From Escherichia phage EcNP1: DNA of 64,000 bases. Positions 563 through 60,941 of the stretch are shown in pieces (within the stretch, counting starts at the first letter, position 1; each line of letters opens with the position of its first letter). The notes under the pieces are model-generated. The model ran no database searches. It was not told the DNA's origin and was given only the letters and a program-made list of their open reading frames with translations. A program made the translations under genes and the position numbers. Location: sequence record NC_054910.1, one strand, 5' to 3'.

Positions 563-2019
563 AGACCAGTTACCTCATGAAAATCACCAAATACATCCTC
601 GAATGTATTAGCTTTAGTTTTATCTTCACGTAAACGAATCGCAATTGGAAGAAATAATTTAACGTAATCAGTGCGGCCATCAGATTTTAACCAACCATTG
701 CATTCGCACTCTAGAATTTTTCCAATATAATAATTTTGGTTTTCCATAATGCGAGTACGGTCAAGTTCATGTGATTTTACACCAGCTTTATCTTTTAAAC
801 CTGAACCAGCGTTTACTTTAATTTTTCCGCATTCTGATTCAAGAATAAATCCACCTGCTTTAGTAGGGTCTTTACGGTGAGGATAAATTCCTACAATTTT
901 TAAATCAACATCAATTACTTCTTTAAATTTATAGAGATTTTTTGAACGAGCATTTTCCCACAATCCATCGGTATTTTTGAGAATAATACCTTCAAGACCT
1001 CGGTCAATATATTTTTTATAAATTACCTTAGCTTCATCTAGGTTATTTACTACCTGGTTTTCAATTAAAATTACTTTATCATATCCTGATGTCATTTGTT
1101 CTAGTTTAGAAAAACGTACATCATATTTTAAACGAAACGCCGGAAGACCGTATATTTCTACCAACGGGACATAATCCCAGACCTGAAACTTCATGCATTT
1201 GGCTTCTTTTTCAGAAATGGTTCCCTTTAAAGATTTATTGGCAATTCCATTAGAAGCAGTACGAGATTCAGCTACTTCGGCAAACTCTTTAGCTTTACTG
1301 ATTTCAGGAGCATCAAAAAGAAAATCTAGGCCTTCTGGTTCCTTTTCAACTTGCTCATGGTATACTAATTCGCCATCAATTAACACACCTTCTGGATGAA
1401 TCTGGCGGGCTTCAGCAGTCATTTTGATTAACTCTTCCTTAAGAAGATCTAATCCTAGATATTCATTACCAGCTCGCGATAAAAGACGAACATCATCTAA
1501 TTCATCGCCTCGGACTTCAGCAAAACACCGAGCTCCATCTGCTTTTAACTGCGCAAAAGCTGGAAACTTGATATTCTTACTAATGCCTTTTTCATCATAA
1601 GAACTTGCCAGCATTTGAGGTTGTTCAGGAATTAAACCTGGCCAAACTTTGTTTGCAATAGATACTGAAGCACCACATTCAAGGTCTCGCATCATAACTC
1701 GACGCAAAACTTCAACATCATCCTTTTTACCATCGGTGATATATCCAGTTAATTCCTCAATTGCTGCATTGCCAGTTAATTTCCGAGTAGCTAACGTGAA
1801 TTCAATGAAGTCAAGCATATCGGTAATAGTCAGCATTCCAAAACTCTGGGTAGCAATACCAGGTTTAGGCCATTTCTTGATATAATACTGTAACCCACGA
1901 GAATAAGTCAGACGATATACTCGTTTAAGCAATTCATTATCTTTATTCTTTTCAAGAATTGCTTGCTTCTGCTTAGTTGATCCGATAGATGCTATTTCAT
2001 TCAGAATTTTAAGAATCAT
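559..2019 (-). CDS. 30: ATP-dependent DNA ligase
   Basis: 486 aa; begins MILKILNEIASIGSTKQKQAILEKNKDNELLKRVYRL; KADGAR adenylation motif; matches recalled T4 gp30 almost throughout. Confidence 0.97.
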   Translation of the reverse strand: MILKILNEIASIGSTKQKQAILEKNKDNELLKRVYRLTYSRGLQYYIKKWPKPGIATQSFGMLTITDMLDFIEFTLATRKLTGNAAIEELTGYITDGKKDDVEVLRRVMMRDLECGASVSIANKVWPGLIPEQPQMLASSYDEKGISKNIKFPAFAQLKADGARCFAEVRGDELDDVRLLSRAGNEYLGLDLLKEELIKMTAEARQIHPEGVLIDGELVYHEQVEKEPEGLDFLFDAPEISKAKEFAEVAESRTASNGIANKSLKGTISEKEAKCMKFQVWDYVPLVEIYGLPAFRLKYDVRFSKLEQMTSGYDKVILIENQVVNNLDEAKVIYKKYIDRGLEGIILKNTDGLWENARSKNLYKFKEVIDVDLKIVGIYPHRKDPTKAGGFILESECGKIKVNAGSGLKDKAGVKSHELDRTRIMENQNYYIGKILECECNGWLKSDGRTDYVKLFLPIAIRLREDKTKANTFEDVFGDFHEVTGL

Positions 2020-2285: not shown

Positions 2286-3124
2286 TAGAATGCTCCTTGA
2301 AAAATATTATCACCACTAGTAGGTCTATTATACAAATACTCTATGCCACCAGGTTTAATATAGTTCCATGTCTGAAACGGATGTGTCTGATATGGATGAT
2401 ATAGATGATTATAAGGATTTAATCCAAGCGTTCTCCAGGTAGTGTTCCAAGGAAAAGAATCGTTTTTAACCATCTTCTCAATTAAATCTTTTATAGCTTT
2501 TTCACTATCAAAACTTTCTTTATTTTCCTTCGGCGAAAAAAGCTTATTTTCTACATCATTCCATGTATAAACTCGCTGCGCAGTTTTTGGAATATTGTCA
2601 CGCTCTCCTCGAGCCATCCAATAAACTGGAACATTTAATATTTCACTCGCATGATCGCAGTGATGAGCGAGATCGTCAATATAACAAATTACGTTATATT
2701 TCTCTTTTGCCTTTTTGAACAGCTCTTCTTTTGAAGAATCATGACCACACATCATTACTTCTGAGAAGGCACCGGGAAAAAGAGCATTCAAATTAAATTG
2801 ACGATTCAACAGAGCGTCAATAGAATCACCCAATGCTGTAACAGCTACAAAATTATAATCTTCTTTTAATTTGTTAATTACACACAGGGCATCTTTATAC
2901 GGAGACAAGTAACGAATAAAATCTGAACGATTGTATTTTTCAATTAACTTGACGCCAAGTTCTTCGTCACAATTAAAGAGTTTACCTGGAGAAATAAATT
3001 TCTCATCTTGGATCATTTTTAAAATATGTTCTAATGGAAGATTATATTTTTGAGCAAAATAAGGAAGGCCTGATTGCCAGCTTAAACAAACTCCATCAAT
3101 ATCAGTTAAAATAGTTGGCTTCAT
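2285..3124 (-). CDS. hypothetical protein with HAD-like N-terminal DxDGV motif (30.2 position)
   Basis: 279 aa; N-terminus ILTDIDGVCLSW resembles HAD hydrolase motif I. Confidence 0.6.
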   Translation of the reverse strand: MKPTILTDIDGVCLSWQSGLPYFAQKYNLPLEHILKMIQDEKFISPGKLFNCDEELGVKLIEKYNRSDFIRYLSPYKDALCVINKLKEDYNFVAVTALGDSIDALLNRQFNLNALFPGAFSEVMMCGHDSSKEELFKKAKEKYNVICYIDDLAHHCDHASEILNVPVYWMARGERDNIPKTAQRVYTWNDVENKLFSPKENKESFDSEKAIKDLIEKMVKNDSFPWNTTWRTLGLNPYNHLYHPYQTHPFQTWNYIKPGGIEYLYNRPTSGDNIFQGAF

Positions 3125-17520: not shown

Positions 17521-18380
17521 TTACACCGCCATTTTTCCTTTAATAGGAGGGTGTGATTCGTAACCTTTAAGAACGAAATCTTTAGGCCTGAGTTTAAGAA
17601 CATATTCCAATTGTTCTTTAGTAGAAAGATAGCGGAATTTATAAGGCAATCCGCCTATTACCAGTTCACAAAGCTCTTTAGGTTCACGACGCAAAATTTC
17701 TTTACATTGTTCTACGTGATTCATATAAATATGAGTATTACCGCCAGAAAATATCAAATCTCCTGGAATAAGATTACACATCTTAGCTACAATATGAACT
17801 AATGCAGCATATGATGCAATATTAAATGGAAGACCGAGGAAAACATCTACCGAACGTTGATACCACTGCAAATCCAAATAGCCATTACGCACATTAAACT
17901 GATAGAACATATGACAAGGCGGTAATGCCATATATTTAAGTTCAGCTGGATTCCATGCAGAAACAATTTGACGCCTATCATTTGGTAGTTTTTTAATACG
18001 ATCAACAACTTCTATAATTTGGTCTACACCGCCAAAATCACGCCATTGTTTTCCATAAATTGGACCAAGTTCACCACTATGATATCCTAAATCTTTTGCT
18101 TGATTTTCGTAATTTTCATCCCAGACTGTTTTGCCTTGAATTAATGAATCATGTTGAATTAATCGCAAATCATTGACATTTATGCTTCCCGATAAAAACC
18201 AAAGGAGCTCAGCAATGCAAGCTTTCCAGGCGAGCTTCTTAGTTGTTACTGCAGGAAAACCTTTACTTAAATCCCAGCGCAATTTAGTACCAAACAAAGC
18301 AATTGTTCCTGTGCCTGTTCGGTCATCGGTTTCGTAACCATTTTCCAGGATATCTTTAATTAAAAATTGGTATTGTTTCA

Positions 18381-33677: not shown

Positions 33678-33682
33678 TTTGA

Positions 33683-33690
33683 ATAAATAT
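33683..33690 (+). promoter_or_regulatory. late-promoter-like AATAAATA upstream of t
   Basis: 7/8 match to TATAAATA about 18 nt upstream of holin ATG. Confidence 0.35.
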
Positions 33691-57371: not shown

Positions 57372-57700
57372 TCACAAGATGTAGATGAACAACTAGAATC
57401 ACAAGAACTTCCACATGAATCGCCCGCCCATACATGAACAGGAACATTAGTGTCATATGAATCAGAACTAGACTGTGTATTAGATGATGCAGTAGGTGTT
57501 GACCAGCGCCAAGGATTTTTATAATATTCTTGGGCTTCTTCATAAGTCATAGTAACTGCTTCTACTGTTCCATCTCCCATATAAACATATTCAACTACAG
57601 TTAAAGGAAGGTAGTCGTTTGAAATAGGAACTACACCTTCTCCAGGAGCTGTAGAGAAAAAATCCGTAAAGAAATTTTTAAACCAATTAAAGATAAACAT
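57368..57700 (-). CDS. hypothetical protein with Cys/Ser-rich C-terminal tail (110 aa)
   Basis: ORF track; C-terminus [18 protein letters not shown]. Confidence 0.5.
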
Positions 57701-57906
57701 TACAAAAAGCCTCTCTTGAATTCAACTTGCTTCTCGCCATAATCATATCGAATCTCTGCATTAAATTCGACAGAACCATCTGCGTACATCATAAATGAAT
57801 GCACAACAACTTCTGTAGACCATGGCTGCAGTTCATATTTCTTCATTACATGCCGTGAAATGATAATATCTAAATCTTCATTTGGTTTAATCCAACGATT
57901 TAACAT
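57700..57906 (-). CDS. hypothetical protein (68 aa)
   Basis: ORF track; first gene after an early promoter. Confidence 0.5.
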   Translation of the reverse strand: MLNRWIKPNEDLDIIISRHVMKKYELQPWSTEVVVHSFMMYADGSVEFNAEIRYDYGEKQVEFKRGFL

Positions 57907-57932
57907 AGTGCTCTCCTCTATAAGATAATTTT

Positions 57933-57962
57933 ATTATACCATACTCATTTTGGAAAGTAAAC
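57933..57962 (-). promoter_or_regulatory. early promoter just downstream of the soc terminator
   Basis: Minus strand GTTTAC, 18-nt spacer, TGGTATAATAA. Confidence 0.55.
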
Positions 57963-57972
57963 CGGTAAAATG

Positions 57973-57996
57973 AAAAAAGGACTCCCGAAGGAGTCC
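57973..57996 (-). terminator. rho-independent terminator downstream of soc
   Basis: Same 18-nt hairpin GGACUCCUUCGGGAGUCC as at 5154, followed by a U-run. Confidence 0.7.
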
Positions 57997-58002
57997 TTGA
58001 AA

Positions 58003-58248
58003 TTATTCACCAGTTACTTTCCACAAATCTTCGTTTGCAGCAATCCACGCAGCACGTTGATTTTCTTCATATACAGTAGTATATGCTGCTTTTTCTGAAG
58101 GGAATGTCTGGTAATGAGCGCCAGAAATTTTGTGAACGTCAGAATAAAGAGGGAAAGCTACAGAAATTTCCTTTCCTTCAATTTTCTTATTTCCATCTAA
58201 TTTCTGCTCAAACGTTTTGATATTAACATAACCGCGAGTACTAGCCAT
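58003..58248 (-). CDS. soc: small outer capsid protein Soc
   Basis: 81 aa, MASTRGYVNIKTFEQKLDGNKKIEGKEISVAFPLYSDVHK; late promoter upstream, strong terminator downstream. Confidence 0.93.
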   Translation of the reverse strand: MASTRGYVNIKTFEQKLDGNKKIEGKEISVAFPLYSDVHKISGAHYQTFPSEKAAYTTVYEENQRAAWIAANEDLWKVTGE

Positions 58249-58278
58249 GTAATTCTCCTTTTATTTAAATTACATGAT

Positions 58279-58286
58279 TATTTATA
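58279..58286 (-). promoter_or_regulatory. late promoter TATAAATA for soc
   Basis: Exact TATAAATA on minus strand about 30 nt upstream of soc ATG. Confidence 0.55.
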
Positions 58287-58330
58287 ATAATTCTCGCGGC
58301 TTTTAAGTCGTCGTTTAAATAAACGAGCTA

Positions 58331-58849
58331 TTAATAACCTCGGTCTTGACGAGCGAAGTTTTCAGCATTCTTCAGATAATAAAGTTTAAAGATTTCTTCA
58401 GCAGTAAGGCCGAGACCTTGGAACATGTTCAGAACGAAATGAAGAATATCAATCATTTCGAATTTAATTTCCAACTGGTCTTGTGGAGACAAATCAGTAA
58501 TCAGAGTTTCACGACGTTCACCATGCTGCGACTTCCAAGGCTTCCATACAGCAGATGCATCTTTTTCACCATTGCTCATACCACCAAGAGAAGTCAGAAG
58601 TTCGCGGAATTCATCGTCAATATAATCTTTCTGATTACGCAGCCAATCAACAACTTCACCTGCGGTAGCCAAATCATCAGGATGACGGTTATATTCAGGT
58701 TTATCTTTAGCTAAACGAACCTGCAGAGATTTCTGCATATCAAGCATAACTTGCAACGGGTCTTTTTCGTCACCGAGAATATCCCAGTATTCATTTTGAG
58801 CTTTATCAGCGCCTTCAATCAGTTGTGAACATTCATTAAAGTATGCCAT
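58331..58849 (-). CDS. 56: dCTP/dCDP pyrophosphatase (MazG-like)
   Basis: Track ORF 203 aa trimmed to MAYFNECSQLIEGADKAQNEYWDILGDEKD (172 aa) as in T4 gp56. Confidence 0.88.
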   Translation of the reverse strand: MAYFNECSQLIEGADKAQNEYWDILGDEKDPLQVMLDMQKSLQVRLAKDKPEYNRHPDDLATAGEVVDWLRNQKDYIDDEFRELLTSLGGMSNGEKDASAVWKPWKSQHGERRETLITDLSPQDQLEIKFEMIDILHFVLNMFQGLGLTAEEIFKLYYLKNAENFARQDRGY

Positions 58850-58920
58850 TATTTTTCCTTTCAATTCATGGGTTAGTAGATTAATTATACAATAAATATA
58901 TAAAGCAATAAGGAGGACAT

Positions 58921-59121
58921 ATGGTACAAAAATTAATGGCACTTGTTAATGCCATAAAAGGTAATAAAAAACGTATAGCTTTTACTATTTCTGCTATGAT
59001 AGGAATTTTACTTTGGAATTTTGTTTTATCGCCAGTTGCTATTGCTCATGGCGTTAGTATTCCAGTAATTACTCTTGATACATTCGTAGATTTAGCATTT
59101 GCTTTAGTTGGGTTAATTTAA
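58921..59121 (+). CDS. opposite-strand small membrane protein (66 aa)
   Basis: ORF track; AAGGAGG RBS 6 nt upstream of ATG; two predicted hydrophobic segments; convergent with gene 61. Confidence 0.45.
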   Translation: MVQKLMALVNAIKGNKKRIAFTISAMIGILLWNFVLSPVAIAHGVSIPVITLDTFVDLAFALVGLI

Positions 59122-60146
59122 ATCTTAGCATATTTAGATAGCCGCATTTTAGCCATCAACCCCTGCGCAATATTATTTTTCATATATTCCATAATTTGTT
59201 CAGGGGTTGCACCTTCCTTTCTAATCATATCATTAACATCTTTTGATTTCCAGGGAGATTTGTCCCAAAACATAACCCTTTCTCCTGCATCAACTAATTT
59301 AGTCATTCGTTTAATAGTATCAGGGTGACGAGGTTCATTATCTAAAACCCATACACGTCTATCTTTAAATGGAACAATTTCTAGGTCTAATTGACCACCT
59401 GTAATAGCTATACCATTTTCAATAAAAAGTGAATCTATGGGTCCTTCTAGAACATATACATCACCATCTTTAACTCGTTCAACACCATAGATTTTTGTTG
59501 CCTCAGGATAAGCTTTGATGGTGATATATTTTTGAGGAGCATCTTTCTTTAATGCACGTCCTTGAAAAGACTCAGCTTTTCCATTAGCATTATAAATTGG
59601 AATAACAAGACGAGGCTCAGGTATTTCCTTTTTATATGTTCCTGGTGCTATGCTATTAACTAATTTAGGCCATTCGGTTGTAAACCAAAGATATTTCCAT
59701 TTATCCTTTGGAATACAGCGAGCTTTTACGTATTTTATAATTGGATGGTCTTCCGCCAGTTTATCTAATCTAATGCATGACGGAAGAGATTTAATTATTT
59801 TCTTCTCAGGTTGTTTAGGAAGTTCTTTAGGTTTTTCTACTGGACGACTTTTACCTTTTTCTTTTCTTATTTCAAAGATATACTCACGATATAAATCAGG
59901 TTCAAACTCCTTTAAATATATTCCGATTGGTGCATGATAGTTACAGTTATAACAATGAATATTTCCTTCATTATTATCACCATAATACCATCCACGGGCT
60001 TTATTTTGGTCGGTTTTTGAATCTCCACAAACAGGGCATCTAAACCGTAATTTAAAAGTTGAACTATTATTTACTTGTGCGAATTTAGGTAAATGAGCCA
60101 ATGCACGGTATGCAAACTCATTATCAATCCAAGGTATTGATGACAT
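59118..60146 (-). CDS. 61: DNA primase gp61
   Basis: 342 aa; zinc-binding CPVCGDS...CYNC and TOPRIM region; T4 gp61 length. Confidence 0.95.
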   Translation of the reverse strand: MSSIPWIDNEFAYRALAHLPKFAQVNNSSTFKLRFRCPVCGDSKTDQNKARGWYYGDNNEGNIHCYNCNYHAPIGIYLKEFEPDLYREYIFEIRKEKGKSRPVEKPKELPKQPEKKIIKSLPSCIRLDKLAEDHPIIKYVKARCIPKDKWKYLWFTTEWPKLVNSIAPGTYKKEIPEPRLVIPIYNANGKAESFQGRALKKDAPQKYITIKAYPEATKIYGVERVKDGDVYVLEGPIDSLFIENGIAITGGQLDLEIVPFKDRRVWVLDNEPRHPDTIKRMTKLVDAGERVMFWDKSPWKSKDVNDMIRKEGATPEQIMEYMKNNIAQGLMAKMRLSKYAKI

Positions 60147-60148
60147 TT

Positions 60149-60313
60149 TTACTCTTCTTTTTCTTTAGATTCCTCTTTTTTCTTTTTAGGAATCTGTTCA
60201 GGACCTTTATTTACTACAGCACCTGACGTTGTTCCAGTGGAGATATTTTCAGGATTACCACCTGAATCTCCAGCTACCATATCTTCTTTAATAAATTCTT
60301 TATATGTTTTCAT
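60149..60313 (-). CDS. possible small hydrophilic ORF (54 aa) upstream of gene 61
   Basis: Read by eye: MKTYKEFIKEDMVAGDSGGNPENISTGTTSGAVVNKGPEQ...; stop 2 nt before gene 61 ATG. Confidence 0.35.
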   Translation of the reverse strand: MKTYKEFIKEDMVAGDSGGNPENISTGTTSGAVVNKGPEQIPKKKKEESKEKEE

Positions 60314-60314
60314 A

Positions 60315-60941
60315 TTAACCTCTATTCATAAAAGCATTAAAAATTTGGTCATCAATAGAAACATCTACTTTAGACTGTTTTTCTGATGGTAATTCATATC
60401 CACATATTACAATTTTGTGATCAATATCAAAATACACAGAAGCAATATGATTAATGATGTTTTCAGTAAAATCTAAATCAACATCAATATCTTTTTGACC
60501 GCAACCCAAAGGATAAATAATGCGAGTAATTCGATTATCTTTAACAAAGATTCCACCGACATACTCTGTGCTGCGTTTAAAGTCTACACGCCGACGAAAT
60601 GAAAAATATTCAGGCTCTTTATGAGCTCGGCTCATAGGACACAACGAGTAACTAGAATAAGAGATGTCAAATTCTACACCTTCAATATGAGCCAAAGTAT
60701 CATGATTAAACCAATTATAATCGTACGCCAAGTCCATTAGATTATAATATGTAAAAGGCACCGGATTAACATCATTAGTCACAAGCACGTAATTAGCAAC
60801 TGCTATAATTTCGTTGTTTTTAACGAATACAAACCGCGATTGATGCGAATGACCTGGACCTGCGTTTTCACGATTAATGATATAACACTGGGCACCTTTA
60901 TATTTGTACGTGTCTTTGCACTTGTGCATTTGATAAAGCAT
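60315..60941 (-). CDS. hypothetical protein (208 aa)
   Basis: ORF track; start lies in one copy of a 20-bp tandem duplication. Confidence 0.55.
   Translation of the reverse strand: MLYQMHKCKDTYKYKGAQCYIINRENAGPGHSHQSRFVFVKNNEIIAVANYVLVTNDVNPVPFTYYNLMDLAYDYNWFNHDTLAHIEGVEFDISYSSYSLCPMSRAHKEPEYFSFRRRVDFKRSTEYVGGIFVKDNRITRIIYPLGCGQKDIDVDLDFTENIINHIASVYFDIDHKIVICGYELPSEKQSKVDVSIDDQIFNAFMNRG

Follow-up and report, generated by a model that had tools for sequence, protein, structure and literature searches.

The plus strand between genes 56 and 61 of Escherichia phage EcNP1 (NC_054910.1) carries an open reading frame of 66 codons that is a genuine protein-coding gene under purifying selection at the level of the protein. 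Our analysis of this frame within a 64,000-nucleotide stretch of the genome (the window, whose first letter is position 1) leads us to conclude, with a probability of roughly 0.8, that it is the orthologue of dam.1, a genuine and narrowly distributed gene of the T-even phages, which would encode an inner-membrane protein of about 66 residues and is most likely expressed late. The evidence that carries this conclusion is comparative: the frame keeps its position and strand across genera, its codons change as those of a coding sequence do, and a candidate late promoter accompanies its start codon in lineages between which the surrounding DNA can no longer be aligned.

A plus-strand reading frame among minus-strand genes

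The frame runs uninterrupted from an ATG start through 66 codons to a TAA stop and fills most of the 268-bp gap between genes 56 and 61 (Table 1). Its stop codon, at 59119-59121, overlaps that of gene 61, at 59118-59120 on the minus strand, and the two coding sequences have 4 nt in common; on the other side of the locus, soc adjoins the far end of gene 56. In annotated relatives it is the sole plus-strand gene of the locus, all of its neighbours being encoded on the minus strand. An earlier note on this DNA, made from the sequence alone, had described just such an arrangement, with a plus-strand frame of 66 residues between genes 56 and 61, opposed to a run of minus-strand genes and ending over the gene 61 stop, and in each of these respects it was right. 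It had also pointed to a near-perfect ribosome binding site, and the AAGGAGG is indeed there, although the spacer that separates it from the ATG is 4 nt long (ACAT) and not the 6 nt that had been given. The core of this Shine-Dalgarno sequence, GGAGG or GGAG, occupies the same place in most lineages, with only TGGAG in the Dhakavirus NC-G.

Table 1. Coordinates of the reading frame, its signals and its neighbours (window positions)
Feature	Position	Strand	Basis
Gene 56 (dCTPase), divergent upstream neighbour	58331..58849	-	context
Predicted MotA-dependent middle promoter of gene 56	58884..58907	-	consensus; alignment with T4, RB69, VR7 and K65
Candidate gp55-type late promoter, AATAAATA, A at -13	58891..58898	+	sequence; gene t parallel; conservation
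Shine-Dalgarno sequence AAGGAGG, 4 nt 5' of the ATG	58910..58916	+	sequence
dam.1-type coding sequence, 66 aa (MVQKLMALVNAIKGNKKRIAFTISAMIGILLWNFVLSPVAIAHGVSIPVITLDTFVDLAFALVGLI), phrog_2024 member	58921..59121	+	ORF list; phrog_2024 match; T4T orthologue; dN/dS
Terminator-like hairpin (8 bp) and T-run, in codons 2-12 of the reading frame	58926..58955	-	scan; folding
Gene 61 (DNA primase), convergent neighbour, 4 nt in common with the end of the reading frame	59118..60146	-	context

The window phage is a Tequatrovirus, and this region is 98% identical to that of phages ECO4 and 132. Relative to T4 it is without segF in the interval between soc and gene 56 (58249-58330) and without dam in the interval between gene 56 and the reading frame (58850-58920); in some close relatives (LH2, WL-3, GRNsp7, P8 and BMB16) an HNH or homing endonuclease or dam is inserted in this interval. 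When 58850-59121 was shuffled with its dinucleotides preserved, an ATG-started frame of at least 66 residues appeared in any of the frames in 29 of 5000 shuffles. The decisive evidence that the frame did not arise by chance is its conservation.

A catalogued family confined to T-even-type phages

A tblastn search with the product matched 691 phage records at E <= 1e-3, and in 684 of these the match extends over 80% of the product or more. The gene was found, with its place and strand unchanged, in Tequatrovirus (T4, T6, T4T), Mosigvirus (RB69, F31, PhAPEC2), Gaprivervirus (VR7, P896) and Dhakavirus (NC-G), at about 30% identity in Karamvirus (CkP1) and in Klebsiella phage K65_evo9, and in two further metagenomic lineages, so that synteny on this strand extends over at least six genera of Tevenvirinae. 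The place characteristic of phrog_2024/Dam.1, with gene 56 (or dam) on one side and gene 61 on the other, both of them encoded on the opposite strand, is occupied in the window as well as in T4T, RB69, VR7, NC-G, F31, K65, CkP1 and the metagenomic contigs. According to distribution searches the family does not extend beyond enterobacterial T-even-type phages: among 1.84 billion representative proteins a profile search returned only six clusters, and a scan of IMG/VR for the locus only seven loci.

Although the earlier note had treated the frame as a new gene, it is already widely annotated. The product matches phrog_2024, a PHROG family with no assigned function, at E=1.9e-30 (residues 2-66 against profile positions 1-65 of 65), and the same PHROG is matched by the Klebsiella-phage orthologue, the Karamvirus orthologue and a paralogue in VR7 (E=1e-23, 2e-22 and 3e-25). 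The gene is named dam.1 in T4T (HM137666) and RB69ORF029w, RB32ORF030w and VR7ORF033w in other records, an identical protein is annotated in IME339, KIT06 and Lv5cm, and in most records, which amount to hundreds of genomes, the product is labelled a "hypothetical protein". The frame is thus a catalogued gene. It is nonetheless missing from the annotation of the T4 reference (NC_000866), where an intact 66-residue frame lies between dam and gene 61 (record 17738..17938; locus extract 2739..2939), and likewise from that of KJ477684 ('T4 wild'; intact frame at locus extract 2514..2714). Our literature search, which extended to T4 ribosome profiling, transcript start sites and antisense RNA, found no mention of the gene, the sole published statement that it turned up being a transmembrane prediction for RB69ORF029w (PMC1524935 supplement). 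We set aside the label 'putative head morphogenesis protein' in the T6 record, which derives from a similarity note and stands equally on the unrelated product of gene 61.1.

In the Gaprivervirus VR7 the gene is immediately followed by a tandem paralogue that the record does not annotate (locus extract 1701..1970, 89 residues, starting MGTLFYQIWKLTSKKDKK...WNLLVVPIAATQGVHLP...). This paralogue is the phrog_2024 member just mentioned and extends 72 nt antisense into gene 61; in P896 a paralogue of the VR7 type is reduced to a truncated remnant (locus extract 1709..1804).

Selection acts on the encoded protein

Nei-Gojobori dN/dS ratios lie between 0.10 and 0.40 for independent pairs inside three genera. 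Between genera synonymous sites are saturated, but the protein motifs are kept and the frame stays open. As a control, all six frames were compared, and the annotated plus frame 0 gave 69 synonymous and 40 nonsynonymous differences (Sd and Nd), with pN/pS of 0.11-0.30; no other frame surpassed it, either in the aggregate or in the majority of pairs. Over codon positions 1, 2 and 3 the variable sites are distributed as 8/2/13, 7/0/14 and 6/3/11, and the indels, of 3 residues in OE5505 and of 1 residue between genera, are all in frame. The check that the earlier note had proposed, of conservation and codon substitution among relatives, came out in favour of a gene. The deletion in OE5505 (locus extract 1501..1692; AMV/AMI) falls where the transmembrane helix begins.

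Disruptions are rare among the approximately 20 loci sampled for comparison. In T6 (NC_054907, locus extract 3001-3003) ATT replaces the ATG, and the annotated product is a shorter one that begins at Met6; in ECCR664 (OL631257, a sparsely annotated record of 134 kb; extract about 1454-1650) a frameshift follows KGNKRK and represents either a real loss or a sequencing error. Because of these two cases the gene may be dispensable.

The minus strand carries signals of its own here, and they have to be weighed against a coding reading. The predicted middle promoter of gene 56 consists of a MotA box, TGCTTTA (58907..58901), an 11-nt spacer and a -10 element, TATAAT (58889..58884). In alignments it corresponds to P(M) 16.53, a mot-box/-10 promoter of the T4 annotation, and to the predicted RB69 middle promoter Pm:16038 (PMC1524935). 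T4 records place oriA here, with the gene 56 transcript as its primer RNA, and the predicted promoter would be the equivalent of the one that primes T4 oriA. Since dam is absent from the window phage, this promoter directly overlaps, back-to-back and within a 71-bp spacer, both the leader of the reading frame and its candidate late promoter. Just inside the frame, the terminator-like hairpin on the minus strand is likely to serve as a terminator for gene 61 transcripts, to judge from its sequence; a terminator is annotated there in Yersinia phage fPS-65. The hairpin folds in the window and in T4, that is, in Tequatrovirus only, and is absent from Mosig-, Gapriver-, Dhaka- and Karamvirus and from Klebsiella phage K65.

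One could therefore imagine that the frame has no function and is merely kept open by the elements that surround and enter it, namely the gene 56 middle promoter (oriA), the minus-strand terminator and the end of gene 61. The promoter does overlap the leader with both its MotA box and its -10 element, in Tequatrovirus the hairpin does occupy codons 6-12, and the T4 reference annotation does omit the frame. The non-coding elements, however, span at most the first ~35 nt of a frame of 201 nt, and the hairpin is not found outside Tequatrovirus, whereas in three genera the substitutions in the remainder of the frame favour third positions, with dN/dS far below 1. The frame is still open in lineages whose synonymous divergence has reached saturation, and in VR7 there is a tandem paralogue. 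We regard a non-functional frame as highly improbable and continue with the reading of the frame as a protein-coding gene.

A candidate late promoter that tracks the start codon

Upstream of the frame lies the motif AATAAATATATAAAG (58891-58905), which the earlier note had likened to a late promoter. Its first part, AATAAATA, is found 22 nt before the ATG and, placed at -13 to -6, would give a predicted start at about 58904 and a leader of 17 nt. Compared with late-gene boxes of the TATAAATA type it has a single deviation, the A at -13. This is the commonest variant of TATAAATA, present in 9 of the 50 T4 late promoters listed (PMC2988020), and A or T at -13 is common among T4 relatives (PMC1524935); variant late promoters are used in vitro and some of them in vivo, although their in-vivo strength is not known (PMC2988020). 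The window offers a parallel in the holin gene t, which has AATAAATA at 33682-33689 on the plus strand, 18 nt before its ATG, rather than the canonical TATAAATA.

The heptamer ATAAATA is depleted in the window, with 15 copies on both strands against 35 +/- 6 expected and at least 15 in every shuffle, and the full TATAAATA is not (8 copies against 8.9 expected); the depletion of ATAAATA is compatible with selection against stray late promoters. On the plus strand, four of its nine copies sit 18-34 nt before frames led by a Shine-Dalgarno sequence: genes 34, 36 and t, and the frame considered here.

The box can be followed in relatives. In six lineages (the window, T4, RB69/F31, VR7/P896, K65 and the metagenomic lineage L024) NATAAATA precedes the start by 12-24 nt, and it keeps this place though the surrounding DNA is unalignable between lineages and, in T4, dam is interposed. 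The base at -13 varies: T4 has GATAAATA and VR7 and K65 have CATAAATA, G or C being rarer deviations, and the canonical T is present in no lineage. CkP1 and the metagenomic lineage L026 have one-off variants only, no recognisable late box was seen upstream of the frame in NC-G, and a published HMM scan of RB69 called no late promoter at this site. What stands of the earlier likeness to a late promoter thus stands by comparison, with AATAAATA as an A(-13) variant, with the parallel in gene t and with the kept position of NATAAATA. The box moves with the start codon from one lineage to the next, which makes expression late in infection likely.

We also considered whether ATAAATA is the mere complement of the spacer of the gene 56 middle promoter and rejected this, as its offset to that promoter varies between genera and as the T4 middle promoter is about 1 kb away with the box still 12-24 nt from the start of the frame. 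A sigma-70-like plus-strand promoter was not found in the intergenic region upstream of the frame, the only upstream match on that strand being a weak 9-of-12 site inside gene 56.

A transcript that may run on into gene 61

A candidate late promoter on the plus strand, facing gene 61, raises the question of whether RNA or protein is the selected product. The earlier note had offered an antisense regulator as one of its possibilities, and in its strongest form this would be a late antisense RNA that starts at AATAAATA, runs into gene 61 and beyond it and silences primase mRNA late in infection, the frame itself being incidental. The window is arranged in a manner that would permit it: the two coding sequences share their last nucleotides, no plus-strand hairpin follows the stop of the frame here or in RB69, and the plus strand is without a terminator-like site for about 4.5 kb, so that a late transcript would run antisense into gene 61. 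In T4, moreover, there are several sites of which each strand is transcribed at a time of its own (PMC2988020).

The arrangement is, however, not a conserved one. A plus-strand terminator hairpin with a U-run lies right after the stop in NC-G and in L026, and more weakly in K65, and in Gaprivervirus (VR7 and P896) the frame and gene 61 are 109-207 bp apart, with a paralogue in that interval; on account of these terminators and of the Gaprivervirus spacer, read-through into gene 61 is not a shared property of the family. Purifying selection, in contrast, acts on codons and is specific to the plus frame, and amino-acid motifs survive at 30-50% identity where the DNA is unalignable. A cis-antisense RNA should overlap its target in a conserved way and be free of coding constraint, and the locus has neither feature; nor was there an Rfam match in 57500-60500. 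Taken together, the codon constraint and the unconserved antisense arrangement argue that the protein is the selected product, and an incidental frame within a regulatory RNA seems to us quite improbable. As a conserved function, antisense regulation is accordingly unsupported, with codons that are constrained and a plus-strand terminator directly after the frame in three lineages, and in Tequatrovirus and Mosigvirus the transcript may have an antisense effect of a secondary kind.

A predicted inner-membrane protein

The protein that is under selection is hydrophobic throughout residues 17-66. Kyte-Doolittle analysis divides this region into stretches at about residues 19-42 and 45-66, in agreement with the two hydrophobic segments of the earlier note, but the AlphaFold2 model, built from an alignment of eight sequences (mean pLDDT 74.5), bears out only the first of these as a helix of membrane length: its helices are at 2-13, 16-42 and 52-62, with a loop before the last, and the C-terminal one is short. 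For the RB69 orthologue a transmembrane segment at 21-41 has been predicted (RB69ORF029w; PMC1524935 supplement). Five basic residues precede the long helix (K4, K13, K16, K17 and R18), and the only charges after it are the conserved acidic D53 and D57; such a distribution suggests, by the positive-inside rule, that the protein would insert with its N-terminus inside and its C-terminus outside. A core, W-N-[FY]-x3-P-x4-[HN]-G-x3-P-x3-[LF]-[DE], is conserved across all genera in our alignments, and the window protein conforms to it. Purifying selection, synteny and a predicted transmembrane helix with a positive N-terminal flank together uphold the view, held already in the earlier note, that this is a gene for a small membrane protein.

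Searches for relatives of assigned function returned none in Pfam, NCBIfam, PDB sequences or BFVD. Pfam gave nothing significant for the window protein and four divergent members, NCBIfam gave nothing, the PDB sequence profile returned only the transmembrane helices of NqrE (E=0.023), which we read as a compositional match, and a BFVD fold search gave family members only at E<1.

A small, very hydrophobic product with a charged end, probably made late from a promoter variant that it has in common with gene t, naturally brings to mind a holin or a lysis protein of the pinholin type, and UniProt indeed names the OE5505 orthologue 'Holin'. That name is without detectable support. The family does not match the holin families of Pfam, NCBIfam or PHROG, the nearest approach to one being phrog_11161, which a single divergent member hit at E=0.31; in BFVD, holin-named matches appeared only at E>5, where family members alone fell below 1. 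The locus is no lysis cassette either, as its flanks are the dCTPase and primase genes and an endolysin or spanin gene does not adjoin it, and the window already has the canonical T4 holin t (218 residues, MAAPRISF...). With a single membrane-length helix in the AlphaFold model as well, we give very little credence to a holin or pinholin, and keep to the reading of a small inner-membrane protein of another kind.

Discussion

The picture that emerges is of a probable late gene read against the direction of its neighbours. In the model that we favour, RNA polymerase carrying gp55 would start at the variant box AATAAATA and produce a message whose 17-nt leader bears a strong Shine-Dalgarno sequence. 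The basic, amphipathic N-terminus of the product (KGNKKR) would remain in the cytoplasm, a single long transmembrane helix would bear the W-N-[FY]...P...[HN]-G motif, and a hydrophobic, acidic tail of ~24 residues ([LF]-[DE]-x2-V) would either be placed on the periplasmic side or dip back into the membrane.

Insertion into the membrane, its topology, late timing and any function in the envelope are what we infer. With low confidence, we would guess at a non-essential accessory of the inner membrane that acts late in infection, for example in the modulation of lysis or lysis inhibition or of superinfection; the roles in exclusion or lysis timing that the earlier note had put forward are speculation. 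It is tempting to go further and to imagine that Dam.1 is an unrecognised late inner-membrane part of T-even envelope control, concerned perhaps with lysis timing by holin T and RI or with late superinfection and expressed from an A(-13) promoter of the gene t type, and that the mRNA, which is unterminated in Tequatrovirus and Mosigvirus, could there also silence primase mRNA in antisense; as a whole, this proposal is rather unlikely. Were it true, the locus would have escaped notice since the T4 reference record never annotated the gene.

That omission has a bearing whatever the function proves to be. T4 is the reference phage of molecular biology, and since its RefSeq record omits the gene, omics studies and screens that use this annotation would not report it. 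The frame would add one small membrane protein to the late programme of the T-even phages, and its surroundings illustrate how 71 bp suffice for two promoters placed back-to-back, the predicted middle promoter, equivalent to the one that makes the T4 oriA primer, and the candidate late promoter. The find is a modest one, since hundreds of genomes already list the gene under the label "hypothetical protein".

Among known genes, the nearest are the dam.1 orthologues themselves, which have a similar length (63-69 residues), lie likewise with gene 56 (or dam) on one side and gene 61 on the other, and are oriented opposite to these two. T4T dam.1, RB69ORF029w, RB32ORF030w and VR7ORF033w are orthologous to the window gene, with an identity of 92% to the T4 copy and of about 50% to those of RB69 and VR7, and the Klebsiella-phage and Karamvirus copies are more distant, at about 30% identity to the window protein. 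The T4 copy lies behind dam, whereas the window copy, in a phage in which dam and segF are absent, abuts the middle promoter of gene 56, back-to-back with it; otherwise a few conservative substitutions set the window copy apart.

The second comparison is with T4 late genes that have A at -13, such as t, and here the likeness is in the placing of AATAAATA on the plus strand, 18-22 nt before an ATG led by a Shine-Dalgarno sequence. The late transcription of gene t is established, whereas that of the dam.1 orthologue is deduced from its sequence. Finally, the product resembles in kind the small accessory proteins of the T4 inner membrane, Imm, Ac and the RI antiholin, which have fewer than 100 residues and one or two hydrophobic helices, are non-structural and are restricted to T-even phages. 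The likeness is one of kind only, and goes with no detectable similarity in sequence. There is also a difference in how the genes are disposed: those for Imm, Ac and RI lie on the early strand, whereas the dam.1 orthologue lies on the opposite strand, behind a promoter of the late type.
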